NCBI GenBank assembly: GCA_963717465.1
Contig: OY970340.1
Location: forward strand, 320,001-384,000
Direction of reading: 5' to 3'
DNA length: 64,000 nucleotides
Source of the DNA: Candidatus Bathyarchaeota archaeon
GTDB lineage: Archaea; Thermoproteota; Bathyarchaeia; Bathyarchaeales; Bathycorpusculaceae
Each line of letters begins with the position of its first letter. The first letter of the stretch is position 1. Positions 1,258 to 44,825 of the stretch are shown piece after piece. The position numbers were made by a program, and so were the translations under genes. The notes beneath the pieces were generated by a model. It was not told the origin of the DNA. It worked only from the letters and a program-made list of their open reading frames with translations, and made no database searches.

Positions 1258-4200
1258 ATGCCGTACATTAAAAAAATTGAGTTAAAAGGCTTTAAGTCTT
1301 TTGGACCGCAAACCGTTAAAGTAGTACTGGATAAAGGCTTCACTGCTATAACAGGTCCAAACGGAAGCGGAAAAACCAACATTATGGATGCAGTATTATT
1401 CTCATTAGGTGAATTAAGCACAAGAAGACTTCGCGCTGAAAACGCTTCCAACCTGATTTTTCACGGTTCAGAAAAAGCCGGGCAAGAAAAAGCAAAGATG
1501 GCAAAAGTCGTCATTCAATTTGACAACACTGACGGCACAATGGCGGTCGACACTACGACGGTTACTATTTCTCGGGAAGTTTACAGGAATGGCCAAAGCG
1601 TTTACAGGCTTAACGGCAGAAGAATGTCACGCACTAACATTATAGATACGCTCTCCATGGCTGCAATAAGCAGCGTTAGCCAAAACATTATTCCCCAAGG
1701 CACAATTACACGGTTAACAGACATTAACCCGATTGAGCGAAGAAAAATAATCGAAGACCTAATTGGAATCGCACAGTACGATGCGGAAAAAGCTGAAGCT
1801 GAAGATAAACTTCGAACGGCAGACATTTCAATTCGAACAGCCATGGGCAGAATCGACGAAGTTCAAAAACGCCTTGACGACTTAGAACGAGAACGCAACC
1901 AACTCTTACGTTACAATTTTATTCAAAACGAAATCAAAAAATTTGAGGCAATAAAAATCTCGCATGAAGTTAGACAGCTAAACAAAAAAATTGAAGAAAC
2001 AAATGGTCAAACTGAAAAAATCATCGCTAAAGTTGACCGCTTAAAGGGACTCCGTGACATGAGAAGGTTAAAACGCCGTGAAATTGAAGGCGAATGGAGA
2101 AAACTAAGCGGAGAAACCCTTGAAGAAGGCGGCTCACAGGTTCTTAAGGTACAAATAAAAATTGGCGAATTAAAATCTAAACTCACCGAGTTATCTTCAA
2201 AAATCAGTTCTGGGCAAGCAAGCCTTGAAAGTCTAAAGCGGGTAAAAGAAAACAATCAGGAACAACACGAAACAATTCAAAAAGAAATCAAAGATAACCG
2301 ATTAAAAATTCGCGTTCATCGAGCTGCTTATGAAAAAATTCAAAGCCAGATAAACCTGAAAAAGACTGAGCATGATAGTCTTGCTCAAGAAACAGCTCAG
2401 CTTTGGGAAGGCTTAGGAGATAACAGCCAGAAAATACGCGGATTGGAGATGCAAGTTGAAACTCACATGCGAAGGTTGGCTTACTTGCGCTCTGAATACA
2501 CAAAAGATAAGGCGGCCCTTCGAATCAGTTCAGGTCGACTAAAGAATTTGAATGTCCGCAAAGAAAAGTTCGTTGCAAGTCTAAAGGAAATTGAGACAAG
2601 CCTAAATGAATTAGAAAAAGTTCAAAAAGACCAAAAAGACCAGCTTAAAAACCTGGAAACTATCATTGACCGTAAATTGATCTCAGAAGGAAACTGTTGG
2701 AAAAGAAATTTCAGAAGCAGAAAGAATAGCTGGTTCAGCTAAGGATGCAGTAATAGAATTTGCTACACAACGTGAGCTTGCAGCAACAATAGCAGCTGAA
2801 GAAAAAGCCTTAAGAAGCATTGAAGAAATGGGCGACGCTGGAGCACTTAATGGAATTCACGGAAGACTTCGCAATTTAGTTAAAATTGACAAGAATTACA
2901 AGAAAGCTATAGATGCAGCAGCGATAGGATGGCTTGACGCTTTAGTCGTAAAAGATATTGACTCAGCGTTCATGTGCGCTGAAACGCTTAAAAAAATGAA
3001 GCTGGGACGAATAAAAATCATCCCTTTACAGGGAGCCATTAATCCGAAAAAGAAAGATACCCCTCATAGAGAAGGGGTAGTTGGTGCGCTCTCGCAATTT
3101 TTAAATTACGAGACAACGTTTGAGAGTGCCGTAAATTACGTTTTCGGAGATACCATGGTCGTTTCTAATGATCAGACAGGCTTTGATCTTTCAAATGAGG
3201 GATACCGTGCAGTCACGGTTAACGGTGACTTGTATGAGCCAGGAGCCTTTGAAAGCGGTTATTACCGAGCACCTATTGACTTCTCAACAATTATTCCAAG
3301 TGAAACCGCTATTAAAAGTCTAGATGAAGCAGTTAAAGCGCTTCAACAGCATCTTACTCAACGAGGAACAGACATAACGGGCATCGAAGAAGAAATTGAC
3401 CGTAACAAAATTGAAATGACACGACTGCTGGAATCCATTAACACTTTGGATAGGGAAATAATTAGAATTAAACGAAGCGTTAAACGAACTCAATTCAACA
3501 TTAGACACGTGGATAAGTATGGCGGAAAACTTGAACGGGAAAACGCAGCTTACAAAGGCCGCATGAGCATGTACGTATCTGAGCGAAACGCTATTAAACG
3601 GTTGCTACAGAAAGCTTCACTCAGACATAGCTACCTTAAGATTAAAAACAGATATGGGTCATATTCAAGAACTTGAAGTTCAACGAGAAAAACTTGCAGA
3701 AGAATTAAACACTTTACGCCAAAACTTGGGCTCCGCGCAAACGGAAATTTCAACATGCCAATCACAATTTGACAATGTTCTAAGAACAGGTTATCAAAAC
3801 GTTAAGATTCAAATATCAAAGATTGAACAGCAACAGAAACGTTTGGATAAAGAAGTTGCTGATGCACTTCAAGAACGTGAATCACTTAAGCAGGAAATAA
3901 ATGAACTGGAAAAAAGTCGCGTTGAAATTTCAAAAGCAGTTTTCTCAGCACGCGAAGAATCAAGAAAGTTCACTTCTCAAATAGACACAATCGATACTGA
4001 ATTAAGATTGCTTGATGCAGAGTATGAACAGTCGGAAATGCTTCTAAATCAGCTCCAACTCAGCGTGCAAACTTATAACTTGACGACTGCAACAGCATCA
4101 AAGCCAACTAAAGCAGTATCGGTTACGAGCAGCCTTTAGAAGCGACGGATAAGCAGGTAGAAGAGGCAGAGACTAGCATTCAAATGATGCAGTTTGAACT

Positions 4201-4814
4201 TGAAAGAATAGGAGCAATAAATCAGCTTGCACTTTCTCATTATGCAGATCAAATTTCAAGGTATAGAGAATTATCGATGCGTCTAAACGAGTTAGAAAGG
4301 GAAAAGCAAGCAATCGTTCAATTCATGGATGAAGTTGAAGCGAAAAAACGCAAAGTCTTCATGACTGCATTCGAAAAAATCAATGCCTAGATTAAAAGTT
4401 TATTTCTCAAAACTCACTGGTGGAGGAGATACCGAGCTAAAGCTGGAAAACCCCGATGAACCCTTCGCTGGAGGAATAGACATGTTAGTGCAGTTCCCAA
4501 ATAAACCATCTATCGTTGTTAGTGGAGCAAGCGGTGGCGAGCGTTCAGTTTCAGCAGTCAGCTTCATATTCTCACTAAAAGAGTTAACTCCAGCATCATT
4601 CTACATTCTTGATGAAGTTGACGCCCACCTAGACGCTTTCCACACAACAAAGCTTGCTGATTTACTTTTGGAGGAAGCGGGGAAAACTCAATTTATCGTG
4701 ATTACTTTAAGACCTGAAATGGTCAATAAAGCCCAAAAAGTTTATGGAGTCTATGAGAGAAATGGCGTTTCAAACGTTGTCACTGCTAAATTTCCGGGGC
4801 AGCTGCTTAAATGA
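1258..4814 (+). CDS. smc: Chromosome segregation ATPase SMC, split by about 4 frameshifts (probable sequencing indels)
   Basis: GFKSF, Walker A GPNGSGKTN, coiled coils, hinge (GIHGRLRNL..GRIKIIPL), SGGERS signature, ILDEVDAHLD; fragments 1258-2742, 2828-3676, 3654-4139, 4184-4390, 4383-4814. Confidence 0.95.
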
Positions 4815-5515: not shown

Positions 5516-6089
5516 AAGAAGAAGACGTTGAACAAGCTATAGATAATGATGAAAAGGTAAGGCAGTGCCTTTCATTAATTGAAGCTGCACTGTACGTTTC
5601 AGGAAGACCATTAGATCTAAATGAGCTCTGCCAAGTTATAGGCAGCCGATCAAAAAAGAAAGCAAAGAAATACGCAGACATTCTTATGCAGAAGTATTCC
5701 GCCCGCAATACTGCACTAGAAATTTTAGCGTTAAAGGACGAACGCTACGTTCTGCAAGTCAAAGCTGATTACACGCCGTTAGTTAAGAAACTTGTTAACA
5801 GACCACTGCTTTCTTCAGGTCCACTAAAAACTTTGTCCTACATCGCGTACAGGCAACCGATTTCGCAGAAACGCGTGATTGATGTACGGGGCAGCATGCT
5901 TATGGACACATAAAGATGCTTAAAGACATGAATTTGATTAATTCTGAGAAAAGCGGTCGCTCCATGGCTTTGAAAACTACAGATTACTTCGCTGATTACT
6001 TCGGGCTATCTCATGATACTGGAGTGATGAAGAAAGAGTTGAAACGTATTTTCGGTGAAGCAATAAAAGAAGAGGAACAACCATCCTAA
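5484..6089 (+). CDS. scpB: SMC-Scp complex subunit ScpB (two frameshifts)
   Basis: LIEAALYVSGRPL, LKTLSYIAYRQPI, TTDYFADYFGL read across frames; indels near 5513 and 5890. Confidence 0.88.
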
Positions 6090-6353
6090 TGTGTTGTGAA
6101 ATTTTCTGATTTTCATATTATGCTTATAATAATTTTAACATGAATTTATTGGATAAACTTGCATTTTTCGAAATTAAATTTTAAATCCAGTTTATTTAAA
6201 CCATGTTTAGTTATTGTTTCCTATTAATTGGAATCTAAAAACTTTTAACATATTATTAGAATTCTAAAAAAACATATTTCAAATCATTCTAATTAAAAAC
6301 TGTATCTGAAATTCATAAGCTTATTTACATAATAAAATGTTCTTTCAATAAAT

Positions 6354-7790
6354 ATGAGGTCATTATATATGTCTATTGATACACAAAATAATCAAGCTCA
6401 AATCGAACAACTTGAAGCAGAAAACAAACAGCTCCTGGATGATTTTATCAACTTCATAAAGGAAGCTATTGATGGAGCCAAAGAAATCTCAGTGATGAGC
6501 GACGAAACGCTGAAACTGAGCAAAGAAACAATAACATTGGCTTTTAGCGTTGAAGGAAACGCCAATAAAGTCGCCGATACTGCAAGCAAAGCAGCCTCAA
6601 GCGCTCAACAGAGTGTTGATGCTGCTTTATCGTTGGTCAATGAGGCTGAGAATTCTATGGCAGCGGCTGTAAATGTAGTGGAATTTGGAAATAAAGTTTC
6701 AAGCCTATCTAATGATTTGGTAGCTGGTATGCAGCAAATAGCCTCTGCCTCAAAAGAAGTAGCTAAGGGCGCACAAAAACTCTCCGAACTGTCCCAAAGG
6801 GCTGCATCGAGCACTGAATCATTAAATAAAGTTATGGATGAAGCGGGTACAATAGCTAAGGAAACTTCAGTCATAACCGGCGATGCTGTAAAAAGATCAA
6901 AGGATGCAAACGACCAAGGTCAAAAGGGTCTTTTAGCGATTGAGAATATTAAAAGTAACATTACAAGAGTTTCTGAAGCTGTAACATCAATGGTTAACGC
7001 TGTTGAGCAGGTTGGGCAGATGGCTAATTCCGTCTCAGATATAGCTGGCCAAACAAACATGCTGGCGTTAAATGCTGCGATAGAAGCGGCTAGAGCGGGA
7101 GAAGCAGGAAGAGGCTTTGCAGTAGTTGCTGATGCCGTTAAAGGCTTAGCCGGGCAATCAAAAGTAGCGGCAGGATCAGCCATCAACCTAGTAAAAGGCA
7201 TCAAAGAAGCAGGCATTCAGACTAATTCCATAACCCAGCAATCACAGACAGGCGCAGCCGAGGGAGCAAAAGTCGTTTTAGGTTCTATAAAAGAGTTAGA
7301 TGGAATAGCTGAAATAATGAATGAAATAGCAAGCAAAGTAAGCCTTTTAACGACGGGCGTTGAACGAGGACTCGCCGCATTGGGATCAGTGGTTAGCGTA
7401 ATTAATGAGGTTGCATCCATTGCAGAGGAAAGCTCATCAGCCTCAGAGGAGACTTCTTCAGCAATTGAGCAACAAGCCTCTGCTTCACAAGAAATCACTG
7501 ATATCGCTGGTTATGTTTCTGCCTCTGCTGATTACGTATCTCAATCAGCCAAAGAAGCAAAAAAAGACGCACCAATCATTGCAAAGGCTTTAGATGAAGT
7601 GGCTGCTGGCGTTAATACAGTACAAATAACTGCAAAAGAAGTAGCATCTACCTCGCAAAGCGTTTCAAAAACAATGGAAGAAATTGGAAAAATAAACGAG
7701 AAAGAAAAACAAGCGCTAAATAGGCTAATTGACAAGCGCAGACTAATGCTTGACGAATTAACAAAGAAAAAAGCAAAATATTCAAACTAG
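6354..7790 (+). CDS. Soluble methyl-accepting chemotaxis-like protein
   Basis: Hairpin-tip motif [30 protein letters not shown]; no hydrophobic TM segment. Confidence 0.9.
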
Positions 7791-8025
7791 AGGAAAAATA
7801 GTGAAATTGATGGCAAAAGAAAAATTTTTTGCTAATCAAGAGCTATTACTTTTTTTGTGTTCTTGAATTAAAGTCATTTTATCTAGTTTTCTTGAACGCT
7901 TAAGGAATTAGTTAATATAATTTCTTAAGCTTTGCCTGATGCCTATGTAAGATGTTGAAAAAAAGGTTTTAGGTTAGTTTCTGTTCCAATTAATTTAAAT
8001 AAATAGGTTTAACCTAGTTTTCTTG

Positions 8026-11001
8026 ATGAGATTCACACGGAAAAAGGAAAAAGAGCGCAAGAATCTCCTTATAAAAGGGAAGAAAAATATCGGGAAATTG
8101 TAAATGATGCGCCTATTGCAATTTTAGAAATTAGTTTTGACGGCTCAGAGCTCAGATACGCGAATTCCATCGTAAGCGAATTACTGCATTATTCAAAAGC
8201 AGAGCTTCTCTCAATAAATCCTTTAGAAGACATATTAGTTGAAGAAAGCAAAAAGGATTTCAAAAAAACCGTTAAAGAAGCACTGGCTGGTAAAAAAAAT
8301 CTTAACGCTGAGCTTAAAGTAAAAACAAAGGATGGAAAAACCTTTTGGGGACTATTTAATGCAAGAGTGATTTTTAAGAATAAGGAGCCTTATTCACTCT
8401 TAGTTTTTGCCCAAAATATAAATGAACTTAAAAAAACAGGAGAAGCTCTGCAATTATCAGAAGAAAAGTTTTCAAAGGCATTCAAATTCAGCCCAAATGC
8501 TGTAACACTAACTCGCCTAAGAGACGGCAAAATAATTGACACTAACGATTCAGCATTAAACATTTTAGGTTTTACTCCTCAGGAAGCAATCGGTCACACT
8601 ACGTTAGAGTTAGGGATTTGGAGTGATCCCAAGGACCGCGTAAGCTTGACTGAGGAGCTTTCCTCAAAGGGATTTGTTCTTGGCAGAGATTTTGTTTTAA
8701 AAAGGAAAGATGGAACTAAAATTACAGTAACCCTGTCGGCGTCGTCTCTTAAGATTCAGAATGAAGATTGCTTCTTGTCTTCATTTTTAGATGTGACTGA
8801 ACAAAAAAGGGCAGAGCAGAGACTTTGGCAAGCGAAGAATGATTGGGAACGTACCTTCGATGCGGTTCCAGATTTAATCATGATAATAGATTGTGAGCAT
8901 AGAATTGTTCGTGCTAACCGTTCAATGATTGGAAAAATAGGTGTTACGCCTCAACAAGTAGCAGGACTACCTTGTTATAATGCAGTTCATGATGCTAATT
9001 TACCTCCAACTTTCTGTCCTCATGCCAAGACAATCTGCGACGGCAAAGAACACGTTGCTGAAGTGCATGAGCCAAAACTCGGCGGCGATTTCGTAGTTAG
9101 CACTACCCCGCTCAAAGATGAAAATGGACGATTGATTGGTTCAGTACATGTAGCCCGAGACATCACTAAACGCAAAAAAATTGAAGAAGAACTTAAGAGC
9201 AGTGAAACTCGTTTTCGCTCGTTATATGAAAATAGTCTTGATGCTGTCATGCTGACTATTCCTAATGGCGCCATTCTCAGTGCTAATCCTGCGGCACAGC
9301 ACATGCTGGGCATGACTGAGGATGAAATTAAGAAGGCTGGTCGAAACGGCATTCTCGTTATGGACGACCGGGCGGCTGAGACTATTAAGGAGCGCGCAAA
9401 GGTTGGAAGAGCACAAGCGGAATTGACCTTGAGAAGGAAAGGTGGCTCCAAGTTTGAAGCAGAAGTGTCTTCAGGCTTGTTTACCGATGGTGATGGCGTA
9501 ACAAAAACAAGTATGATAATGAGAGACATAACTGAACGCAAAAAGGCGGAGGAAGTGATTAGGGAAAGAGAGCAGTTGTATAGAACTTTATTTGACAACA
9601 GCGATGATGGTTTTATCCTACTTGAGCCGTTTTACGACCAAAATGGTAAAGCATGTGATTTTAGGTTTTTGAAAGTTAACCCTGCATTTGAGCGTCAAAC
9701 TGGCTTAAGAGCTGAAGATGTCGAAGGCAAAAATGTAGGAAAAGCTGTGAGTGGTCTTGAGCTAGAGTTTTCTTCAATTGTTAAAAAAGTTGTTGAGACA
9801 GGTGAAGCTGCACGTTATGAAAGCTTTAATCAAGATAGGAGCAGGTTGTACGAGGGGCATTATTTCCCTTTTATAAGAGGAAGAGTTGGCGTTCTTTTCA
9901 GGGATATAACTGAGCGTAAGAAAGCTGAAGACAGCGCTAAAGCAAAGCGAGAAAAAATATCATCAGCTTTTTAATTCTATGACTGAAATGTTTATTGTTG
10001 CAGATTTGGTGCGCGATAAAAATGGGTTAGCAATCGACTTCGTTTATGTTGACGCTAACCTGGCATTTCTAAAAAACATCAAGAAAATAAGGAATGATGT
10101 TATAGGCAAAAGATTAGGAGAACTTTTTGAAATCAGCGGAGATTTTCGATTGGAGTTACTTAACAGAGTTGAAAAAACTGGGAAGCCGCATCGCTTCTTA
10201 GCTAAAAGCGAAATAGAAAATCGTCAATTTGAAGTTCTTGCCTGGAAAACTAGTAAAAATCAAGTAGGTTGCACGATTGAAGACATTAGTGAACGCAGAT
10301 TACTAGAAAAGCAGTTGCAAGATAAAGAACGCATGGCAGCTATTGGTGAAACTGCTGGAATGGTTGGACACGACTTACGTAATCCTTTGCAAACTATCGT
10401 CGGTGAGTTATATCTTGCAAAATCAGAATTAGATGAAATTCCTCAAGAAAATAGGAGAGAAATATTACAGGAGAGCATTGAAAGCATAGATACACAAGTC
10501 ACGTACATGGACAAAATAGTGAGCGACTTGCAAACCTTCGTTAAACCAGTGCAGACAAACAAGCAAAAAGTAAACTTAAATGAACTAATCGCATCAACTT
10601 TAACGCAGACCAGCATCCCTGAGAACATTCAAGCAACGACCAAACTCAAAGATAAACTAACTATCGATTCAGACCCTCAACTGCTAAGAAGAGTCTTAAT
10701 AAATCTCATCACAAACTCGATTCAAGCCATGCCAAAGGGTGGAGAATTAATAATAAATGCAAACGCTAGCAGTAAACGTCGAATGAAAATTGAAGTTGAG
10801 GACACCGGAGAAGGAATCCCTGAAGAGATCAAACCTAAAATTTTCACTCCATTGTTTACAACTAAATCAAGAGGCCAAGGTTTCGGTTTATCAGTGTGCA
10901 AAAGAGTGATTGAAGCTCAAGGAGGAACAATAAGTTTTATTAGCGAAGTTGGAAGAGGCACAAAATTCACAATAACATTACCATTAAAATCGTCTGGATA
11001 A
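8026..11001 (+). CDS. Multi-PAS sensor histidine kinase (frameshifts near 8075 and 9945)
   Basis: Repeated PAS/PAC units ending DITERKKAE; H-box VGHDLRNPL; HATPase N/G boxes; frame open upstream of the tracked ORF 8367, so the start is approximate. Confidence 0.88.
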
Positions 11002-11170
11002 AATCTGGATAAAAAACATGAGACTAAGTCTTTGATTTTGCCCTCAAAAGCTTAACCAAGAGGAATACTTCCTCGCAAAGTCGCTTAAGAAAATTACGTG
11101 GTCTTACTGAGCATATGCCGAAAAAAATTATTCTGGATTAAATTTAATCCAACCTTACCAAAATTATGGT

Positions 11171-11368
11171 TTATTCTTTCATTTCTTTGATTTTTTCTTC
11201 TACGGCTGCAAGTTCTTTTTTAAGTTCATTGGCATAATTCTTTAATTTCTCTATTTTTTCAGCCTTTGTAAAGAAGCGTCTTTTGTAACCCCCTTCGCGG
11301 AGAGGGAAGGGACGCCAGCCGCATGAATAGTTATGGTCCATGCCACGATCATAATAATCATCATCCAT
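11171..11368 (-). CDS. Small protein resembling DUF5320 family (Gly/Arg N-terminus plus coiled coil)
   Basis: RRFFTKAEKIEKLKNY..ELKKELAAVEEKIKEM; GAGGTGA ribosome-binding site upstream. Confidence 0.6.
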   Translation of the reverse strand: MDDDYYDRGMDHNYSCGWRPFPLREGGYKRRFFTKAEKIEKLKNYANELKKELAAVEEKIKEMKE

Positions 11369-11576
11369 ATTTTTTCACCTCACAAATTCATCATAAAAGT
11401 GGATATATAAAATGCGGGAGAATCACTCGGAAACTTCGAACTTAACACCGATAATGCACTTCTTAACGCGCAGTTTTAGTTCAGAGGAAAAGAGGAAAAA
11501 GTAGTTACTGTCGGCTTATAGTCACAAACGTAAAAATTCTCAATTGGCTTTCAACTGTAATTCGGAGGTGCAAAGT

Positions 11577-11783
11577 TTGAAATTAAGTGCCAGAAACCAG
11601 TTTAAAGGAAAAGTATTATCCGTTGACAAAGGCATAATAACAGCCAAAGTTAAAGTTGAAGTAAAAACGCCAGTTACCGTTACAGCGGTTATAACAAAAG
11701 AAGCTGTTGAAGACCTAGACGTAAAAGTTGGCGACGAGGTTAATGCAATAATGAAGTCAACCGAAGTCATGATAAGCAAATAA
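11577..11783 (+). CDS. TOBE/Mop molybdate-binding protein
   Basis: KLSARNQFKGKV..AVITKEAVEDL..GDEV.A.MKSTEV; GGAGGTG then TTG at 11577. Confidence 0.9.
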   Translation: MKLSARNQFKGKVLSVDKGIITAKVKVEVKTPVTVTAVITKEAVEDLDVKVGDEVNAIMKSTEVMISK

Positions 11784-12093
11784 CTAACTATTTTTTAGCC
11801 AATATACTTGTTTCAACCCGCGTTATCTCTAATTTAACGATAAAAAGCAAAACAGGCTTCAAATAGCAAGAAAGTTAACAGGCGTTTAAACTCAAAAAAA
11901 TGCTAAAATTCATGTTTTCTACACCCATGACCCAATTCGCGAAGTTTCCCTGAAACTTAAGCCAAACAACATTTTAGAAACCATGAGTTTTAAAGACTTT
12001 TTCTGAATTTCCAATAGTTATATGAGGGATATGTTTATATTGAAATCCATTGATATAACCGTACATTTCTAATTCGAAAAACACGTGGAAACG

Positions 12094-12147
12094 TTAATTC
12101 TGAAACTCTGGACATTTTATTAATAACGAAGGTAAGCTCTTTTGCAT
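12094..12147 (-). pseudogene. Truncated remnant of the zinc-ribbon gene at 17119-17319
   Basis: Reads MQKSLPSLLIKCPEFQN* versus VKEKLPSLLIKCREC in the intact copy, at the same position relative to the repeat. Confidence 0.65.
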
Positions 12148-12174
12148 AAAAGTCACTTCAGTAAATAAAAGTAG

Positions 12175-12376
12175 ATGTTAGTTGAATTGACCTTGTTTTA
12201 GTCCAAGCGAACACAAAAACTAGCAGGAGAGGGGGGACACTGGAACGCATTCCGCTTGGATTAAAAGTCAATTCAACCAACATTTTTTGTAAGCGATATA
12301 CAATATCAATTTAACATTATTTTTTATAAAAATATGTGACTGTCTTTAAACTACTACTTATGCTTGTTAGCTAAAT
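12175..12376. repeat. Composite repeat copy 1: long inverted repeat plus conserved linker
   Basis: Arms 12175-12211 and 12251-12283 pair (about 33 bp, 4-nt bulge, 39-nt loop), followed by AATATGTGACTG..AAACTACTACTTA. Confidence 0.85.
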
Positions 12377-12511
12377 TTGATTGAACTGATATTCTTTCTA
12401 CTCTTCAAATTCTTCACTATTTGGGTTTCTGAAGAGAGAGTAGCATAATAGTAATTGCGGTTGACAAGCGTAACTCGCAAAATAAAAAAGTCAGGGGTGT
12501 TTAAATAATAT

Positions 12512-12922
12512 ATGGAAGTTATGAAAAAAGGGTTTTCAACTTCTATGGAGGGAGAGACGCTCAAAAACACTGACTTCAGATGTGTCCTCTACACGGGAAA
12601 GTACAGTCAACTTGTCTTGATGTGTCTGCAACCAAACGAAGAAATTGGAATGGAAACACATGATTCAGTTGATCAATTCTTCAGATTCGAAAAAGGCGAA
12701 GGAAAAGTGGTCATTGATAAAACCGAGTACAAGGTCAAAGATGGCGATGCAGTAATTGTTCCATCAGGTGCACAGCACAATGTAATAAATACTTCAAAAA
12801 AGCGAAAACTAAAACTCTACACAATCTATTCGCCACCAGAACACGTAGACAAGACAATTCGACACACTAAAGCCGATGCAGAAGCTAAACCAGAAGAGTA
12901 CGATGGAAAGGCAACAGAATAG
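12512..12922 (+). CDS. Cupin-domain protein
   Basis: EEIGMETHDSVDQFFRFEKGEG, VIVPSGAQHNVIN, LYTIYSPPEH. Confidence 0.9.
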   Translation: MEVMKKGFSTSMEGETLKNTDFRCVLYTGKYSQLVLMCLQPNEEIGMETHDSVDQFFRFEKGEGKVVIDKTEYKVKDGDAVIVPSGAQHNVINTSKKRKLKLYTIYSPPEHVDKTIRHTKADAEAKPEEYDGKATE

Positions 12923-12981
12923 GCTCTTCTCACTTTTCTAGAAATAAGAAATAGTAGAACTGCTTACTTGTTCAATCCTTT

Positions 12982-13305
12982 TTAGTCCTCAATGTCTTTC
13001 ATTGTTTCTCTTAATGCCCCAAAGGTTTCCTGAACTGTTCGATTGTCAAGCATGTCTGTGTTCAAGTCTATCGCTTTATTATTTCTCAAAAAATTATCTG
13101 TTATGAAGTCAAGTACAACCCTAACAAAAAGCTTCCACAGTTTAGACATTTGCATATTGTAGATTTCATCATTTGTAAAACCTTCTTCACTTATTCTGCC
13201 TAACAATTCATTTCCTATATCGATTTCTAAGAAGCCTTGCTTTTTCGTTTCATCCAAGAACTCTCTGAAAGTCATATTATAAACGTTCTTGCTTGAACTA
13301 GACAT
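12982..13305 (-). CDS. Hypothetical protein, paralog of 43366-43689
   Basis: Shared MTF.EF.DE.KKQG.LE, EGFT.DE.YNM.MSKLWK, NKAI.LN.D.L.N.TV. Confidence 0.75.
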   Translation of the reverse strand: MSSSSKNVYNMTFREFLDETKKQGFLEIDIGNELLGRISEEGFTNDEIYNMQMSKLWKLFVRVVLDFITDNFLRNNKAIDLNTDMLDNRTVQETFGALRETMKDIED

Positions 13306-13385
13306 GTTATATTTGTTTGTTGGGTTGCTTTTTTAATAATTATTGCATGCCAAAATGGATGCACATTCTTAGATGAGCTTTCCAT

Positions 13386-15236
13386 TCACTTGGCAGGCAA
13401 ACGTAAGGTGAAAGTTGTCCCTTTACCCTCTTGACTATCAAAAGATACGGTGCCATTTAATGCTTCAGTCATACGCTTAACCACTGGCAAACCAAAACCT
13501 TGCCCCTTCGCTTTAGTCGTAAACATTGGTGTAAACAATTTATTCTTGATTTCTTTAGGAATACCAACACCTGTATCCTTAACACTTATAACAAAATAGT
13601 TTTCATCTTTGTAAGCGTGTATTGTCAGACTACCCCCATTGGGCATAGCTTGAACAGCATTATTCACTAAATTGTACATAATACGGTTAATGAAAGTAGA
13701 GTCGGCTACAATGCTCCGAGCGTCAGGTTCAACATTAATGCTGACTTTAATATTCTCAGGCGCACTTGTCTTTGATAGCAACTCTTCAATTATGCCTTTA
13801 ATGTCAGCTTTTTCAATAGAGGGGTTAAGTGGTTTAGAGTAGTCTTGAAGATCGGCTACAATTTTATTAATATAATCAATATTCCTCTCAATTTCCTGAA
13901 TGCTCTCCAAGGAATTCTTTTTCTGATCACTTTCCAAAGTTAATTCCAATTCTGATTTAAGCAAGTATAAATCACCAGTAATAGCCTGCAATGGATTACG
14001 TATATCATGACCTACCATGCCTGCAGTAGCACCAATAGCTGCTAAGCGCTCGGCATCTTTCAACTGCTTGGTGCGTTCATCAACAAGCCTTTCCAAGTGA
14101 TCACGGTATTTCTCAAGCTGCTCTTCAGTTTTCTTGCGTTCGGTAATATTTAGCACATACATACGTATGCGCTGAGCTTTTGGCACGTTGAAGCAGTGCT
14201 GAAGGTACCAGTCATCGCCGATTTTTACCTCACTAACAAAAGTGTTCGCGGTCTTCTCTCGAAATAATTTAACCATCCTTTTCCAGTCGGCAAACAATGG
14301 ATGCTTTAAACCCAATGCTTTAAGGTTAGCAAATTTGGCTTTTGCCGTAGGATTAGCATATTCGACTTTGCCCTCAAAATCTACTTCAATAACAGGGTTA
14401 GGGTTAAGTATTGGAAATGAAGCTAATCTTTTAACTTCTTCTTCAGCTTTCTTGCGTTCTGTAATGTTTCTTGTTATTCCTCGCCAACCCAGTAGTCTAC
14501 CTTTAGCATCAAAGAAGGGAACACCATTAATCTCAACAAAAATCAATCGTCCCTTACTATCATAAGATGGCACTTCTAAACCATTAAATGGCTTAGGATT
14601 ATCGTTCAATTTATTAAATAATAAAAGCATTTCTTCTTTTACTGAATCGGGCATTCTAATAAACACTGTCTTACCAATAATATTCTGAGGTTTAATTCCC
14701 CATAACTTTTCTATTTGAGGACTACAATAGGTAAAGAGTCCCTTATTATCCGCTTCCCAAATTAAGTCACTTGTAGTTTCGATTAAATCCTGATATTTCT
14801 CTTTACTTTCTTTGAGGGCTATTTCTGCTTTCTTGTCTTTTGTAATATCCTTGAATATTACTGCAAACCAGTTTTCCTCTTTTAGAGGTAGAACTGTTGC
14901 TCCAAGCCATTTATCCATACTTATTGAGTATGTCTCAAAACTGACAGCGTTTCCTGATTTAACAGCCTTTTCATAATTTGATAAGTACTCTTTACTTGCT
15001 AATTCAGGTGTGAACTCTGTTACTTTTTTGTCTAATACATTGCGTCTTGTTAAGTTTAATATTTGCTCAAAGAGTTTATTATAACCATGAAGGATGTAAT
15101 CGATGGCTTCTTCTTTATCATTAAAGGCAAGCTCACAGACCTGAACACCTTCACCTAAGGATTCTAAAAGTTTAAGGCAATTATCAAAACTATTTTGGAA
15201 GATATCTTTGATTTGTTTTTCTTCCATAAATCCCAA
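13386..15236 (-). CDS. PAS sensor histidine kinase
   Basis: PAS/PAC units, VGHDIRNPL, NLVNNAVQAM, DTGVGI, GQGFGL. Confidence 0.92.
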   Translation of the reverse strand: MGFMEEKQIKDIFQNSFDNCLKLLESLGEGVQVCELAFNDKEEAIDYILHGYNKLFEQILNLTRRNVLDKKVTEFTPELASKEYLSNYEKAVKSGNAVSFETYSISMDKWLGATVLPLKEENWFAVIFKDITKDKKAEIALKESKEKYQDLIETTSDLIWEADNKGLFTYCSPQIEKLWGIKPQNIIGKTVFIRMPDSVKEEMLLLFNKLNDNPKPFNGLEVPSYDSKGRLIFVEINGVPFFDAKGRLLGWRGITRNITERKKAEEEVKRLASFPILNPNPVIEVDFEGKVEYANPTAKAKFANLKALGLKHPLFADWKRMVKLFREKTANTFVSEVKIGDDWYLQHCFNVPKAQRIRMYVLNITERKKTEEQLEKYRDHLERLVDERTKQLKDAERLAAIGATAGMVGHDIRNPLQAITGDLYLLKSELELTLESDQKKNSLESIQEIERNIDYINKIVADLQDYSKPLNPSIEKADIKGIIEELLSKTSAPENIKVSINVEPDARSIVADSTFINRIMYNLVNNAVQAMPNGGSLTIHAYKDENYFVISVKDTGVGIPKEIKNKLFTPMFTTKAKGQGFGLPVVKRMTEALNGTVSFDSQEGKGTTFTLRLPAK

Positions 15237-15313
15237 TAATTAATTAATTCTGTTTAGGTATTTTATTTTTTAGGTTTAATCTAGTTAATATCTTTATAGA
15301 GCCACAAGTAGAG

Positions 15314-15500
15314 ATGGTTTGAATTGACCATGTTTTAATCCAAGAGAAAATAAAAATAAGTGGTAGAGAGGGAATGGAGATTTTTTCCGCTTGGACTAAA
15401 TGTTAATTCAACCAACATTTTTTTGTAAGGGATATGCATGATCATTTGTAACATTATTTTTTAATAAGAATATGTGACTGCCTTCAAACTACTACTTACT
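15314..15500. repeat. Composite repeat copy 2: hairpin plus linker
   Basis: TTGAATTGACCATGTTTTAATCCAAG..CGCTTGGACTAAATGTTAATTCAACCAACAT, then AATATGTGACTGCCTTCAAACTACTACTTA; colinear with copy 1. Confidence 0.85.
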
Positions 15501-15667
15501 ACCATAGCGCGCTTGCGGCTTTTCAAACTGAAGTTGCCATTAACATAAGCTAAAGCTCTAAAACTATCCCACTTAACCTCAAAAACCCAATCGTTGCTAC
15601 TAAAAATCCTAAGAGGAAGGTTTGGGTAACATTGGTTTATAAAAATGCATAATCGATCAGAAATTAT

Positions 15668-16147
15668 TCAACTGTGTGATTGCTCTTTTACTTCTATATT
15701 ATGTCTTGCAAGAGATCGGTAGGTAGCTGGTTCAATTCTTGAAACCAAAGGGTCTGCTATTCGATGAATAATTCTCCATTCTTCTTTTTCTTGTCTAAAG
15801 ATTGTTGTAGCCCTTAGAGCAATATGAACTATCTCACCTGTATCATCTATTTTAGCATCGAACTGCTCCACCTCTACAACATATCCCAAGTCTTGAGTTG
15901 AAAACTTCACAAGCCTATCCCAGCTTACGTTATATCCTGCTTGGAACCAAGAAGCACGTGAATTCAAGTGATGGATGACTTCTTTTAAACCCACTGAGAT
16001 ACCGCCTTGTGCTCCAAGCAATGAAACGTCCTTTTCGATGGAGAAGAGTTTATCGTAAGGTTCTGGGTTGCCCTTATAGAACTCTTTGACTGCAAGATGT
16101 GTCCTTTCAACCATTTGTTCAAAGTCAGGTATAACCAAATATATCAC
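15668..16147 (-). CDS. NTF2/SnoaL-like protein
   Basis: DLGYVVEVE..LRATTIFRQEKEEWRIIHRIADP. Confidence 0.8.
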   Translation of the reverse strand: MIYLVIPDFEQMVERTHLAVKEFYKGNPEPYDKLFSIEKDVSLLGAQGGISVGLKEVIHHLNSRASWFQAGYNVSWDRLVKFSTQDLGYVVEVEQFDAKIDDTGEIVHIALRATTIFRQEKEEWRIIHRIADPLVSRIEPATYRSLARHNIEVKEQSHS

Positions 16148-16270
16148 AATTAGACAGCTATAGTGCTTGGCACTTCAAGTTATGTGATTGTTCTATGCCT
16201 ACATTGAAGCGTTAGCTATAACAGAGTCTAAGTTATTGCTAGATGTCTCTTTTATAAGATCAAGCTTTCT

Positions 16271-16330
16271 AATTTAATAAGAATATATGACTGCCAGTTT
16301 ACAACTACTTAGCTAAATCTGCCACCACAT
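16271..16330. repeat. Composite repeat copy 3: linker plus zinc-finger gene tail
   Basis: AATAAGAATATATGACTGCC..ACTACTTAGCTAAATCTGCCACCACAT; minus strand reads SVCGGRFS*. Confidence 0.75.
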
Positions 16331-16390
16331 ACAGAAAAGAACACGCTAACCTTAATAGCTAATAATTAACTAGTATATTGAGGTATTATT

Positions 16391-16717
16391 TTGAATAAGA
16401 ATCACCAAGTCATAGCTGATTTTAGCATAATACCAATTGGACACAATGAGACAAGCGTAGGACGCTTCGTTGCAACTGCCGTTAAAGCGTTTAAGAATGT
16501 TAATGGCTTAGATTATGAAATAACTGCTATGGGGACAGTCCTTGGAGCTAAAGATTTGGATACAATTTTTGAAGCTGTTAAACAAGCCCATCAAGCAGTG
16601 ATAGATAAGGGCATTAAAAGAGTAGAATCCACATTAAGGATAGATGATAGAAGAGATAAGGCTCGTACAATTGATGACAAGGTAAAAGCAGTTAATGAAT
16701 ATATCAAACAATCTTAA
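16391..16717 (+). CDS. MTH1187-family (thiamine-binding-like) protein
   Basis: IADFSIIPIG..YEITAMGT..RVESTLRIDDRRDK. Confidence 0.88.
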   Translation: MNKNHQVIADFSIIPIGHNETSVGRFVATAVKAFKNVNGLDYEITAMGTVLGAKDLDTIFEAVKQAHQAVIDKGIKRVESTLRIDDRRDKARTIDDKVKAVNEYIKQS

Positions 16718-16855
16718 TGGTTTAGAAAAAAAGCTTCTAAAGAAAATCCAAGCGCGCGGCGCGCGAATACAAAGAAACGTAACTGTTATTCTACAGTAAC
16801 AAAGATTAAAATCGTCAACTTTTTTATTTAAACATTGATTTTAGGAGGTGAATGC

Positions 16856-17083
16856 ATGCAAGTAACCGAGCCTAAGCAAGAAGGCAATCTAAGCAACGGT
16901 GTCTACGATCTAATGTATCAACTCCTTGAGGAAAATCAGAGCCTTTGGCGAATAAAAAACAACTACAAAAATGATTCCAAAGGTGACCCTGAAGCAAACA
17001 AGTTCTGGAAAAACCTAGGAAAGGATAAAGAAGAACATATCAACCAACTTACGAAACTCTTGGCAAAGAGGATACAGAGTTAA
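16856..17083 (+). CDS. Small helical protein, possibly a half ferritin-like domain
   Basis: YDLMYQLLEENQSLWRI..FWK.L..DKEEHINQL (ExxH-like); GGAGGTG ribosome-binding site. Confidence 0.6.
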   Translation: MQVTEPKQEGNLSNGVYDLMYQLLEENQSLWRIKNNYKNDSKGDPEANKFWKNLGKDKEEHINQLTKLLAKRIQS

Positions 17084-17118
17084 AGCGCGAATCCTTTCTG
17101 ACAACTGTTCGAAGCCTT

Positions 17119-17319
17119 TTAAGGACAAAATGAGATAGCTAAAACATCATCCTTATCCCACTTCAGCTTAGTTTTGCACACAGTGCATTTGAATTCTCTT
17201 TCTTCAAATTCTGAGGAACAAAATGTTTTCATATTCATCGACAATCCAGTATCAACTAAAGCTTTGCACTCACGACATTTTATTAAAAGAGACGGCAACT
17301 TTTCCTTCACTTGAATCAC
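17119..17319 (-). CDS. Small zinc-ribbon protein
   Basis: CREC..CTVC..W; a truncated paralog lies at 12094-12147. Confidence 0.65.
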   Translation of the reverse strand: MIQVKEKLPSLLIKCRECKALVDTGLSMNMKTFCSSEFEEREFKCTVCKTKLKWDKDDVLAISFCP

Positions 17320-17351
17320 CGAAAGGACAATAAGTAGAATAAGTAGAAAAG

Positions 17352-17450
17352 GGTTTGTTTGAATTGACCCACTCTACTGTTATTTTATTTTTTTATAAAA
17401 GTATGTGACTGCTTTCTTGCAATCACTTAGCTAAACCTTCCACCACACAT
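17352..17450. repeat. Composite repeat copy 4 (hairpin body deleted)
   Basis: TTTGAATTGACC left-arm start followed closely by TTTTATAAAAGTATGTGACTGC..ACTTAGCTAAACCTTCCACCACACAT. Confidence 0.75.
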
Positions 17451-17598
17451 TGGACATTCAGCTGGGAACTTGTTCTAATAAATCATAAGCCGATAATGAC
17501 ATAGAAAATAGAAGTAAATGTTGCATTTAGGGCAGTAACTAAAGCCACCAACAGGTTTGCCACATGCATCGCAAGGACGAGCTAAAAAGGTTAACCAT
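17427..17598 (-). pseudogene. Degenerate multi-CxxC (RING-like) zinc-finger microprotein gene
   Basis: Reads ARPCDACGKPVGGFSYCPKCNIYFYFLCHYRLMIY*NKFPAECPMCGGRFS*; in-frame stop and 5' frameshift. Confidence 0.7.
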
Positions 17599-17634
17599 AA
17601 ATGTGCTCATGGACTCATAAGTAAAGTGTTGAAA

Positions 17635-19046
17635 CTACAGCCAAGAACAGTGGAGACATTGATGAAAATAAGGGAAAACTGGAAAGCCGCTTAATCGTTT
17701 GAAACAACAATTTTTCCGCTCGGCAAACACACGACAACGTGCCAGCCTTGAGGTAGCAAAGTTTCCAGTTCCTGTTCGGTTACTAGCCTTTGGCAGTTTT
17801 TGCCATCGGCGCATCCCGCCATTACGCGATATCTTTGTGCTTCGCTCTCTTTTGATTTGCTCAATTTCTCTGTTGATTGAATCTTTAGAAATCATTACGC
17901 ATTCTTGAAACAAATCAATGCCTTCCCTGTAAGCAATCCGTTGTATTGCCTCAGCCTCCAAAGTAATGTTAGGAATGGCTATTGCAGGCTCTTTACCAAC
18001 CCATTCAGCTTCAAGCTGTCCGAGTATGTCCTCAGAAAAGTGTCCTGATTGTCGCAGGTTGTCGATTGCTACCTTTATTCTAATATCATCTTCGCTCGAT
18101 ACAGCCTTAGTTGTTGTGAATTGTAACAGCGGAACAGCTTCTTTGTATTTTTCTCGAAGCTTCTCTATTTCAGGCTGTGAGTATGGGCTTTCCTCTTCTC
18201 TAACTTTGCGACCTCTAATTTTCTTGCCCAATTCGGGTGAATGCCAACCTCTTCCAGTGCAGTTTCAACCATTCGCCTGCCATCATGCCATGTAAAGTGC
18301 ACATTAGCATTTTTTTGATAGTTCCACAATCAAATCACCCATATGATTGTAATTTAGCGGTTAGTAAGGCTTACATATGTTTCTCCAAACTTTATTCTCT
18401 AAGCCTAACCGTCTGCCCATCTTCTTCTCATCCATTCCTTGTAATTCAAGAAGTCACGTTTTACCTCAGGTTCAAGAAGGCTATCTGTCGCACACCTTTG
18501 TATCGTCCTACACCGTTACCTTTCAAAATCTCAGACAGACAACTAATACAAGGCAAATCCTTTATTTCCCAATTATCTTCAAAATACTTGAATTTTAGCT
18601 CAATCATCGTTTCCTTGGCTAAAGCCTACTGTTGACAAAGCTGATTAGCGATTTATCTCTTAGATTTTGAGCATAATCCCACAGTCTCGTAAACCGTCTT
18701 TTGAGGGCTTTCGATGTTCCCTCTGCTGGATTAATGTGATTGCGCCTGATAGTCTTGCTAAATCGCGGTAGCTATGCTTGTAAAAGCTCTTGACGGCTGT
18801 AACCATGTTTACTTTGATAGGATTGGTAAATTGAGGAGTTTCAGCAGTAACAAAATCATCCAAAAGCTGTTCTGCCTCTTTGCTTGCTGGACTATCTTTT
18901 AAAGCAAGCAGTTCTGTCGGGTTCTTTTTAGCCCACCTGCAAAACTCCAACAGATAAAAGCAGTTGGCATTTTTTGATTGCAATTTGCCAACCCAGCGCA
19001 TAACTTGAGAGATTACGTTGCTTCTTGTTATCTTCTCGCCGCCCAA
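17635..19046 (-). pseudogene. Decayed tyrosine recombinase/integrase-like gene
   Basis: Across frames: AVKSFYKHSY, LRDKSLISFVNS, FTWHDGRRMVETALEEVG, IRGRK..SPYSQP..LREKYKEAVPLLQF; several frameshifts and one in-frame TAA; 3' end uncertain. Confidence 0.75.
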
Positions 19047-19202
19047 GAAAATTCACCGTCTGCATAACCTTCAATATAATAATGACCATAACTTTCGTAT
19101 AAACGTGCGATAAACATATTCTTATAAAACAAAGCTTTATATTGAAATTAACGGTTTTAGTGACTACCTATTTGGATTAGAATAGAGAAAAAGGGAATTA
19201 AA

Positions 19203-19598
19203 ATGTCAGTTTGGCATGGCAGTTTGCGCAAAAGAAAACTAACAGGCGGCAAAAAAAGAGCCTACCGAGGGAAGAAAAAGTTTGAGCAGGGCGGATTTGC
19301 AGCTGAAACAATTCTTGGTGAACCGAAAAGGAAAAGCACACGCGGCTTTGGCGGCAACAGTAAAGTCAAAGTGTTAAGCGACAAGTTTGCTTCAGTGACC
19401 GACCCGAAAAGTGGTAAAATCGAAAAAAGCGAAATTTTACGCGTTGCAAAAAACGCAGCTAATGTTGATTATAACCGAAGAGGCGTAATAACAAAAGGCG
19501 CCGAAATTGAAACAGCATTAGGCTTGGCACGTGTCACTTCTCGCCCAGGCATAGACGGCGTAATAAACGCGGTCCTAATAAGCAAAGAGAAAAGCTAA
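19203..19598 (+). CDS. rps8e: 30S ribosomal protein S8e
   Basis: RKRKLTGGK..RRGVITKGAEIET.LG.ARVTSRPG.DGVINAVL. Confidence 0.97.
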   Translation: MSVWHGSLRKRKLTGGKKRAYRGKKKFEQGGFAAETILGEPKRKSTRGFGGNSKVKVLSDKFASVTDPKSGKIEKSEILRVAKNAANVDYNRRGVITKGAEIETALGLARVTSRPGIDGVINAVLISKEKS

Positions 19599-19626
19599 AT
19601 TTCACTGCTGGCTTGCAGCTTCACTT

Positions 19627-19905
19627 TTAATTTTTAGCTAGTTGTTTTGCTATTTTTTGTATTATTTTTTCTTTTGCTTCTTTCTTTTCAACCAGCAGCA
19701 TTCCTGTTGTAGCCCAAGGTGTTCTGGGATAGTGAGCTTCAAGTTTCACCTCGCTTTTTAAGCCTAAGCGATCAGCCGCATCTTTAACTTCGGTGATTTT
19801 GGGTAATTGCACAGCCAAGTTTTTGGGTACTCGTCTTCCATTTTTTCTAGCTTTAGAGCTATCAAAGTATACGGGCCAAATTATTACTTTATCGAGTTTA
19901 CGCAT
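19627..19905 (-). CDS. srp19: Signal recognition particle 19 kDa protein
   Basis: IIWPVYFDS..RKNGRRVPK..HYPRTPW. Confidence 0.93.
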   Translation of the reverse strand: MRKLDKVIIWPVYFDSSKARKNGRRVPKNLAVQLPKITEVKDAADRLGLKSEVKLEAHYPRTPWATTGMLLVEKKEAKEKIIQKIAKQLAKN

Positions 19906-19919
19906 TTTTTCACCTTAAA

Positions 19920-21670
19920 TTACTTGTGGGCGTAATAAGCCACCAATTTCTGATCAACTTCATCTACTTTGGCGAATCCGAACCGTTCAAACTGAATAAT
20001 AGTTTGCGGCTTTAAGTTTTTGCAGGCGCTCTCAGCATACCCTTCAACAATTGATGCATCAGGCATCACCACTTGGCAACTGAACGTTTGCTCGTGTGGT
20101 ATCCACTGTATAAGTTGCGGCTTAATTTTTCTAATTTCCTCATAAGACTCGCTTTCAAACAACGCCTCAACTATGCCGCTTTTTTCGCCCACTATTTTGA
20201 TGTTGAACAATTCCATAAGCCTAACTATTTTATCCTTCTCCATTGCTTGCGCGTCTTTTCTTGAAATCCAAAAACACACAAGCCCATCTTCTTGTTTCGG
20301 CGTTACAGTGTATTCTCTGAATCCTCGTTCAGCTGTTCAGGATGCAACGGCAATTTTGCGTGGAAAGCCTTTGGAACCTGCCTAACTTTTAATTCCACTG
20401 GCTCTGGAACAAAGAAGTATCTGTCGCTTGTGGCGTCAAGGATTTTGCGGTTGTAGGCATACAGGTTTTCCCAGCTTAATGTGACATCGTTTGTTTTTGG
20501 TCCAACGTCGATTATCATTTTTTTGATGGCTTCAGGTGTGATTCCGCGTTTGCGCAAAGCGGCAAAGGTGCCGAGTCGTGGGTCATCAAAGCCTTTGTAG
20601 ATGCCTTCATTTATACCTTGAATAATTTTTGATTTGCTCAGGAATGCCCCTGTTATTTTCAGTCTGCCATAATGAATTGCTTCAGGATACGTCCAACCGA
20701 GATACTGATACATGTATTTTTGCCGAACCATGTTCGTTAAATGTTCTTTACCTCGAATAATATGCGTCATGCCCATCAAATGATCGTCTAACCCAGCTGC
20801 CAAATTATAAAGAGGCCATAGAACGTATTTGCTTCCAACTCTTGGATGAGGATACTTTTTTGTGTCAATAATTCGCAGCGCAGGCCAATCTCTAACTGCA
20901 GGGTTTGGATGATTTAAATCAGTTTTGACTCTCACAACAGCTTGACCCTCAGAGTAACCGCCATTTAACATCTGTTTCCAACGTTCCAAATTCTCCGCAG
21001 AAGCTTTGTCTCGGCAGGGGCATGGTTGCATAGCTATCGTTTTTTTCCTAAACTCTTCTGAGGGGCAAACGCAAACGTAAGCGTTACCATCAGCAATTAG
21101 CTTTTCAGCGTACTCGTAATATATGGGCAATCGGTCACTTTGAATGTACTCTTCATCGATTTTGCAGCCAAGCCACTTCAAGTCTTGCCTGATGCTTTCA
21201 TAGAATTTCAATGATGGCTTCTTTACTTTTGGATCCGTATCTTCAAAGCGCAGAATAAATTTGCCATTGTACATGCGAGCGTACTCGTGGCTTAATATTA
21301 TGGCTCTTGCTGAACCTAAATGTAAGACGCAATCAGGGTTTGGAGAAAAGCGAGTAATCACCTGAGCGTATTTTTCAGCGTTTGGCAATGGTGGCAAACG
21401 TTTCTCTTCGACGTTTTCTTTCTTTTGAGTTTCAGGCCAGTTTTTCTCAATAATGCTTTTTTGCTCTGAAACCGATAGAGCATTGACTTCATTAACAACT
21501 GTTGCGATTACGCTGGATAACTCTTTTACTTTTGACCGGAGCTCCTGTTTTTCGCCTAAGATTTTGCCGACTATTGCTCCTGCCTGAGCCTTGCCGTCGT
21601 GTTGAACTGCATTTAGCAAGACGAGTTTTCGAATAAATTCTCTAAGTTCAGCGTCATTTTCAAGTGCCAA
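19920..21670 (-). CDS. gltX: Glutamate--tRNA ligase (frameshift near 20330)
   Basis: RFSPNPDCVLHLGS, LRFEDTDP, THIIRGKEH, LSKS; C-terminal IQFERFGF in the 19920-20279 fragment. Confidence 0.95.
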
Positions 21671-31054: not shown

Positions 31055-31095
31055 TAATTTCGATTAGTTCATTCTTGCCCTATTTTTTTTAGTGA

Positions 31096-44807: not shown

Positions 44808-44825
44808 GTAGGCCCTGATTACATA

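Follow-up and report, generated by a model that had tools for sequence, protein, structure and literature searches.

Introduction

Cryptic integrated elements of archaea are described as having AT-rich intergenic att sites, integrating in tandem and exchanging modules by homologous recombination (excerpts of PMC6563490 and PMC8371274). Among thaumarchaeal integrated elements, 15 of 68 lie in intergenic regions (excerpts of PMC6563490), and psiM100 is integrated in an AT-rich intergenic site (excerpts of PMC8371274). Here we describe a locus of Candidatus Bathyarchaeota archaeon (GCA_963717465.1) in which four co-oriented copies of one composite repeat alternate with unrelated genes, the array ending at a tyrosine-recombinase-like gene. 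The window, the whole 64,000-nucleotide (nt) stretch that was analysed, covers positions 320001-384000 of a 3.05-Mb genome in a single contig (OY970340.1); positions are those of the window unless given as genome positions. A sequence-only reading of this DNA had proposed a gene-capture platform or tandem integrations of one element family. Our analysis points to the array as, probably, the interior of a decayed island integrated at the TATA region of the ribosomal-protein gene rps8e (19203-19598), and to the repeats as diverged, differently truncated duplicates of a promoter/hairpin unit that are likely promoters and not recombination sites.

With archaeal tyrosine-recombinase islands, as far as these are covered in the excerpts of PMC6563490 and PMC8371274, the locus shares an integrase at one end, short flanking direct repeats, an empty site in relatives, an AT-rich intergenic target and decay after integration. 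It differs from them in its target, the TATA region of a ribosomal-protein gene, a case of which we found no example in the excerpts of the two papers. It further differs in lacking replication and mobilisation genes, in a cargo of relocated or duplicated host genes and in an integrase that is invisible to Pfam.

Like an integron, the locus has a tyrosine recombinase adjoining unrelated genes that are parted by a recurring structured repeat, part of which forms a hairpin. Unlike in an integron, the edges of the repeat are unequal, the hairpin is present in two of the four copies, a promoter-type box lies within the repeat and the cargo is on both strands. The recombinase is nearest to XerA and phage integrases, IntI (2a3v) ranking 9th in the fold search, and the att-like site is unrelated to the repeat. 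No IntI-type integrase, no uniform attC sites with paired cores at each junction and no mostly promoterless cassettes in the same orientation were found. That the array is no integron, as the sequence-only reading had held, was borne out by the mixed orientation of the cargo, the ragged repeats and the XerA-like recombinase.

Results

A putative insertion in the TATA region of rps8e

Matches to scpB and rps8e lay 278-1224 nt apart in all seven same-genus relatives fetched, compared with 13,290 nt in the window. The 13-kb gap is empty in each of the seven, in agreement with the earlier proposal of an insertion beside a gene of the tyrosine-recombinase type. Sequence found upstream of rps8e in the relatives is split in the window: positions 12027-12046 hold the left flank and a core, and positions 19129-19170 hold the core and the right flank. 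This arrangement is best read as one insertion of about 7.1 kb (12047-19135) that appears to split the ancestral TATA region of rps8e. Its span approximates that of the array plus the recombinase gene, which lies 90 nt inside the right edge, and through the duplicated core rps8e still has a TATA before it.

The 20-nt left pattern of the relatives had a single match in the genome at up to 3 mismatches, at 12027 with 0 mismatches (reversed control, 4). Within the window, the 13-base-pair (bp) core TTTATATTGAAAT occurred exactly only at 12034 and 19136, and no internal copy was found in the array at up to 2 mismatches. Features expected of an integrated element were found as a tyrosine-recombinase fold with HxxR and Tyr, flanking direct repeats with swapped native flanks, and an empty site; foreign cargo and genes for replication or transfer were not detected in the island with Pfam and PHROGs. 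To the right of the array lie the genes for S8e, SRP19 and GluRS (Pfam).

A second block of 5.9 kb (6086-12026), from the stop codon of scpB to the displaced half of the rps8e promoter, is also absent from 7/7 relatives. It contains genes for an MCP-signalling protein and two PAS histidine kinases, a DUF5320-like open reading frame (ORF) and a TOBE gene.

Anatomy of the composite repeat

Four co-oriented copies of one composite unit were delimited at 12094-12376 (copy 1), 15306-15498 (copy 2), 16266-16329 (copy 3) and 17119-17598 (copy 4), each retaining a different part. On the minus strand, the full unit runs from a four-CxxC zinc microgene through a linker and a hairpin of about 108 nt to a zinc-ribbon gene of 66 amino acids (aa). 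A repeat search in the region 10000-21000 identified a 41-nt direct-repeat family at 12320, 15458, 16271 and 17389, with 73-90% identity to the reference copy, and a 64-nt three-copy family at 15453, 16266 and 17384. Copies 1 and 2 are joined by a 67-nt and a 39-nt repeat pair; a 20-nt family in the array adds 17350-17369, the 3' hairpin arm of copy 4; and 12105-12135 pairs with 17268-17298 (31 nt, 77% identity).

An 18-nt pattern drawn from the copies matched four times in the window, always on the plus strand, compared with 0.40 matches expected from shuffling, and none of 100 shuffled sequences reached 4. By blastn against the whole genome, copies 1 and 2 aligned with 80% identity over 196 nt (E 5e-39), and copies 3 and 4 with 75% over 64 nt. 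Copies diverge by 10-27% from the reference copy and other pairs by 18-25%. The edges of the copies are ragged and unequal, and the hairpin is kept in full only by copies 1 and 2. These results confirmed two observations of the sequence-only reading: the four co-oriented copies of one element, by repeat search, pattern-versus-shuffle test and blastn, and the minus-strand order of microgene, linker, hairpin and zinc-ribbon microgene, of which each copy keeps a different part. Coordinates of the parts are collected in Table 1.

The linker as a likely promoter/operator type

On the minus strand, the linker consists of (A)GTAGTAG, 7 nt, RCAGTCAC, 5 nt and a TATA-like run, and it belongs to the box type TGTTGTAG-N8-ACAGTCAC-N5-TATA. 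Employing an nhmmer profile built from ten linker-type sites, we obtained 46 matches in the genome at E<8, 10 of them the training sites. Common to linker-type sites is the order TGTnGyTGT, 6-8 nt, RCARTCACA, about 5 nt, and TTAA or TTAT; GGAGGTG and a start codon come after many of them. Of the 46 boxes, 13 are followed at 10-150 nt by a Shine-Dalgarno sequence and by a start codon that opens an ORF of 30 or more codons, versus 5 of 46 when reversed and 3.2% of random positions. Eight of those 13 box-to-ORF distances fell between 57 and 71 nt.

HTH_45 genes have the box too, about 38 nt before their ATG, in 8/8 orthologue loci (40 other genus genomes searched) and in three copies in the own genome. 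The operator of these winged-helix genes, TGTTRTAG-N8-RCARTCAC-N5-CTTAATTG, is conserved in 8 other species. The own HTH_45 loci are at genome 2632590, 2656022 and 1356231, and weaker boxes are clustered at 2.632-2.661 Mb. A candidate for the protein that reads the box is HTH_45 itself.

Because its order, spacing and orientation match those of the genus-conserved boxes, the linker is likely an instance of this promoter/operator type, pointing to lower coordinates and with a presumed promoter function. The composite repeat had been proposed as the site of accretion; for its linker, the genome-wide profile search showed instead a promoter-type motif at about 46 places, conserved before HTH_45 genes in other species.

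Behind the boxes, on the minus strand, lie the zinc-ribbon gene (copy 4), the NTF2-like gene (copy 3), the hairpin and the kinase gene (copy 2), and the hairpin and a dead zinc-ribbon remnant (copy 1). The NTF2-like ORF starts 147 nt past the start of the 18-nt box match of copy 3, or 129 nt past its TATA-like end. Metagenomes were scanned with two degenerate patterns, one for the hairpin arm and one for the linker; neither found a match.

The hairpin unit

RNA folding predicted one long stem-loop for copies 1 and 2 and for three other genomic copies (-24 to -41 kcal/mol; z -1.6 to -6.1). Folded to a consensus, five hairpin copies share 29 pairs, of which 5 show compensatory changes; the loops are C/U-rich and vary between copies, and a T-run follows the stem in most copies. 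Outside the array, the promoter plus hairpin unit recurs at genome 1545322, 1650742, 180799 and 2637763 (half only), and weakly at 1709386 and 828707. The own genome thus holds 6-8 copies of the hairpin unit in unrelated contexts, none of them near an integrase outside the array. By BLAST, the unit was not found in 60 other genomes of the genus, 9 of which gave only marginal matches of 24-33 nt. Rfam gave nothing at gathering thresholds in the window; in the array region there was only a sub-threshold match to GIR1 (E 0.41). A hairpin family near genome 1.217 Mb has different stems and is not the family of the array.

We also considered the hairpin as a small coding gene, which is unlikely: the shared 'LVELTF' is the conserved 5' arm, the frames then diverge, and a stop interrupts one of the copies.

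Methanosarcina mazei sRNA154 and sRNA41 are archaeal intergenic small RNAs with anti-ribosome-binding-site loops. The array unit is like such RNAs in its own promoter-like box, its stable stem, its variable C/U-rich loop and, in most copies, the T-run after the stem. It is unlike them in being confined to its own genome by BLAST and in having no Rfam match, and copy 2 could be a leader of the kinase mRNA. Judged from its predicted structure, the hairpin may be a genome-specific small-RNA-like gene or a leader.

At genome 1650467-1650949, the box, the hairpin and the first ~57 kinase codons are found together, 80% identical to window 15037-15426; for the 5' end of the kinase gene and the hairpin, the 80% identity spans genome 1650467-1650877. 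Next to it is an unrelated 341-aa gene, and the fragment seems to be a partial duplicate that is dead.

The two zinc microgenes

Of the 60 other genus genomes, 34 have the four-CxxC microgene as a multi-copy family, with internal stops in many copies; in the own genome, one copy (57 aa) is intact and several are broken. In copy 4, the microgene carries one extra T directly after the ATG, and a TAG at a codon that is Gln in two other own-genome copies, one of them intact. Pyrrolysine at this TAG was dropped, since Gln is found in those two copies, including the only intact one, and the relatives are Bathyarchaeota/Bathyarchaeia. Two other roles of the microgene were rejected: as companion of a histidine kinase (a kinase nearby in 1 of 11 relatives' loci) and as companion of the integrase (an integrase match in 0 of 12 microgene loci).

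The only homologue of the zinc-ribbon gene in the other genomes is in a different context. With Pfam, the four-CxxC and zinc-ribbon microgenes gave sub-threshold zinc-ribbon matches only. PHROGs gave nothing useful for the small genes of the island, the best match being phrog_2834 (function unassigned; E 3e-4) with the zinc-ribbon gene. A further remnant of the zinc microgene is located at 44687-44774, directly after a histidine-kinase gene (stretch 43369-44900); together with its downstream flank it recurs at genome 2907 kb.

The recombinase gene and its family

In 12 of the 60 other genus genomes, the 128-aa ORF at 18660-19046 has its counterpart in the N-terminal portion of intact ORFs of 363-459 aa. 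A profile of six homologues matched XerA (4a8e, E 2e-9; 5hxy, E 2.6e-5) over a region that covers HxxR (HDGR) and the catalytic Tyr. XerA 4a8e was also the best match of an AlphaFold model (mean pLDDT 72; E 2e-8); phage, lambda, IntI and Cre recombinases ranked next. The family was not recognised by Pfam in a search with the integrase homologues. In a species-genome collection, 22 of its 23 loci came from metagenome-assembled genomes (MAGs) of Bathyarchaeia.

In the window gene, the HxxR and Tyr motifs are readable, but in different frames. No intact integrase of this family was found in the own genome, only the array copy and fragments at window 31087-31191 and genome 1777014; the former, 12 kb to the right, is 80% identical to residues 82-116 of the N-terminal ORF. 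The array integrase is likely dead, because its density of lesions exceeds that in SMC.

In the same assembly, SMC (1258-4814) falls into five ORFs whose open frames overlap at homopolymers, ScpB (5686-6089) is interrupted at a GGGG run, and the C-terminal domain of GluRS (19920-21670) is in another frame than the rest of the gene. Because the assembly splits these genes, some frameshifts may be assembly errors, which weakens the pseudogene calls.

Neither the 8 integrase loci taken from genus relatives, with up to 18 kb of DNA, nor the 23 loci of the species-genome collection contained a homologue of the linker, hairpin, microgene or cargo. The composite repeat had been thought to be linked to this recombinase family; with its parts scattered genome-wide and none of them in any of these loci, that proposal fails on its own terms. 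Around the integrase homologues in six relatives' loci, the direct repeats found were 11-12-mers only, empty sites lacking for comparison.

In five Bathyarchaeia MAG loci, the integrase occupies one same spot upstream of, and divergent from, an RNase Z-like metallo-beta-lactamase gene, which suggests that the family targets promoter-proximal sites. In the own genome, the spot upstream of RNase Z (genome 2974292-2975500) is empty, and homology stops just after ...ATACAAAT (also given as ...GAAGCNATACAAAT).

Origins of the cargo genes

The cargo consists of native host genes of mixed origin, and at least one of them was relocated from a chromosomal neighbourhood that is conserved. The own genome has a single copy of the Thiamine_BP gene; in 3/3 relatives examined, the gene has a conserved neighbourhood. 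Homology to the relatives' Thiamine_BP locus begins 18 nt away from the edge of copy 3, at 16348, and the gene is absent from the own counterpart of the neighbourhood (2.2048-2.2094 Mb). Compared with three relatives' loci, this neighbourhood (genome 2204766-2209445) is heavily rearranged, the Hsp20-like, zinc-ribbon and TerC-like neighbours being elsewhere or missing.

The Thiamine_BP and 82-aa genes are neighbours in none of the six genomes that have both, lying on different contigs or 192 kb apart. At the junction 16718-16834, two genes that were relocated separately meet with no repeat between them. The cargo is therefore a mosaic of unrelated genes with differing origins, as had been supposed; accretion of modules at the repeat is contradicted by this junction, and the only att-like repeat is the unrelated 13-bp sequence at the outer ends.

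Table 1. Features of the insertion and its ends (window positions)
Feature	Position	Strand	Basis or remark
Left att-like site, displaced left half of the ancestral rps8e promoter (putative)	12027-12046	+	core TTTATATTGAAAT at 12034-12046
Copy 1, zinc-ribbon microgene, remnant of 5' part	12094-12140	-	match at 12105-12135; ~14 codons, then stop
Copy 1, long hairpin with C/U-rich loop	12175-12283	-	fold -40.7 kcal/mol, z -6.1; inverted repeat; consensus fold
Copy 1, linker	12320-12376	-	box ACAGTCAC at 12335-12343, TATA-like run and ~15 nt of zinc-microgene 3' end
Cupin gene	12512-12922	+	Pfam Cupin_2, E 1.5e-16; paralogue at genome 1953118, 69% aa identity
107-aa hypothetical gene, downstream of copy 2	12982-13305	-	paralogues at genome 248839 and window 43369 (43369-43689)
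PAS histidine kinase gene, downstream of copy 2	13386-15236	-	Pfam HATPase_c, PAS, HisKA
Copy 2, hairpin and linker	15306-15498	-	hairpin ~15315-15416, fold z -3.1; linker 15458-15498
SnoaL/NTF2-like gene, downstream of copy 3	15668-16147	-	Pfam SnoaL_3, E 7e-6
Copy 3, linker and ~35 nt of zinc-microgene 3' end	16266-16329	-	41-nt and 64-nt repeat families
Thiamine_BP (MTH1187-like) gene	16391-16717	+	Pfam, E 7.5e-29
82-aa helical gene	16835-17083	+	relocated native gene
Copy 4, 66-aa zinc-ribbon microgene, intact	17119-17319	-	ORF; homologue in 1/60 other genus genomes
Copy 4, 3' hairpin arm only (17350-17369) and linker (17389-17429)	17350-17429	-	repeat families
Copy 4, four-CxxC zinc microgene, broken in the assembly	17427-17598	-	extra T and TAG; 77% identity to the intact 57-aa copy, 1 TAG
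XerA-like tyrosine-recombinase gene, frameshifted	17691-19046	-	tblastn pieces in three frames; 18315-18473 with stops in every frame
Right att-like core TTTATATTGAAAT, doubling as TATA region of rps8e (putative)	19136-19148	+	repeat search; alignment to relatives

Discussion

On the whole we favour, with some reserve, the explanation that the array is what lies inside an island which integrated at the TATA region of rps8e and has since decayed. An integrase of this family would have inserted an element at the TATA box, the duplicated core regenerating the TATA of rps8e, and would have decayed after the insertion. The island would then have grown and been reshuffled by ordinary duplication and by illegitimate or homologous recombination, leaving differently truncated copies of a unit composed of zinc microgene, promoter box, hairpin and zinc-ribbon gene. 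The boxes would drive minus-strand features, namely the zinc-ribbon gene from copy 4, the NTF2-like gene from copy 3, the hairpin and the histidine kinase gene from copy 2, and the hairpin alone from copy 1. The hairpin with its C/U-rich loop would act as a small RNA or a leader.

Several points weigh against this explanation. The att-like core is AT-rich and only 13 bp long, and only 7 nt of native left flank are kept outside it. The insertion has no replication or mobilisation gene and its GC content is close to that of the surroundings; a foreign origin is therefore not established, and the cargo genes appear native. Closer to the start of the NTF2-like gene there is another box in copy 3, which makes the target of this copy uncertain. 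The assembly is prone to indels, and the integrase is possibly less broken than it appears. The 5.9-kb block to the left is unaccounted for, no shared 9-mer having been found as a flanking repeat around 6086-12026. Finally, recombination of circles at a shared repeat would likewise leave co-oriented repeats around inserted DNA.

This last point bears on a second explanation, by which the promoter-hairpin unit spreads itself, either in the manner of a miniature inverted-repeat transposable element (MITE) or as a portable patch of homology, circles excised between two copies re-entering at another copy. The unit is specific to its own genome, where its 6-8 copies lie in unrelated contexts; one copy moved with the truncated 5' end of the kinase gene to 1650 kb; and the relocation of native genes into the island fits, as does the co-oriented flanking pattern. 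Like a MITE, the unit is short, non-coding and multi-copy and has inverted-repeat arms. Unlike a MITE, its copies are few and diverged, the promoter-type box is always on one side only, and the inverted arms are internal; terminal inverted repeats with a target-site duplication, and many near-uniform copies, were not found. An alignment of the copies showed no target-site duplications at the unit ends, the copies are truncated, the junction of the Thiamine_BP and 82-aa genes has no repeat, and no donor-site scar with the repeat was present at genome 2206447-2207078. We regard self-spreading of the unit as rather unlikely.

In a bolder form, which we put forward as a speculation with small odds, the unit would be a portable recombination patch: genes behind a ACAGTCAC-type promoter would be excised and re-inserted at other copies, and a dead island in a TATA box would gather host genes. 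If true, this would be an archaeal route of gene shuffling in which promoters, not att sites, serve as joints.

A further explanation is serial integration or capture, each copy being the scar left by one integration of a small element (integrase, zinc microgene, linker, hairpin and zinc-ribbon gene) or by a cassette that the neighbouring recombinase captured at the repeat. Copy 4 and the integrase do form a compact 2-kb unit, copy 1 repeats the order of promoter, hairpin and zinc-ribbon gene at the opposite end of the insertion, and tandem integration is known for tyrosine-recombinase elements (excerpts of PMC6563490 and PMC8371274). This explanation is nevertheless improbable: the array has no internal att-like core at up to 2 mismatches and a single integrase remnant, the copies are diverged and have ragged, unequal edges, one junction joins genes of different origin without a repeat, and the repeat is absent from the 31 integrase-homologue loci, its parts in the own genome lying away from such integrases. 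The idea of a gene-capture platform or of tandem integrations was accordingly not supported, given the core confined to the outer ends, the promoter type of the repeat and the missing link to the integrase. That the copies merely reflect chance similarity of AT-rich intergenic DNA, in a region with a GC content of 0.34-0.41 and common two-copy short repeats, was already refuted by the shuffle test and the 196-nt alignment and is next to impossible.

The analysis removes a candidate integron-like capture platform. What it offers are four parts, each of them modest. A Bathyarchaeia-specific, Pfam-invisible family of tyrosine recombinases appears to insert beside the promoters of housekeeping genes, as seen at rps8e and at the RNase Z-like spot in five MAG loci. 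The genus shares a conserved promoter/operator type, TGTTGTAG-N8-ACAGTCAC; a hairpin family of the own genome may represent small RNAs; and a single-copy host gene was clearly moved into the island. Jointly, these parts open ways to study how an uncultured class of archaea controls transcription and reshuffles its genomes.

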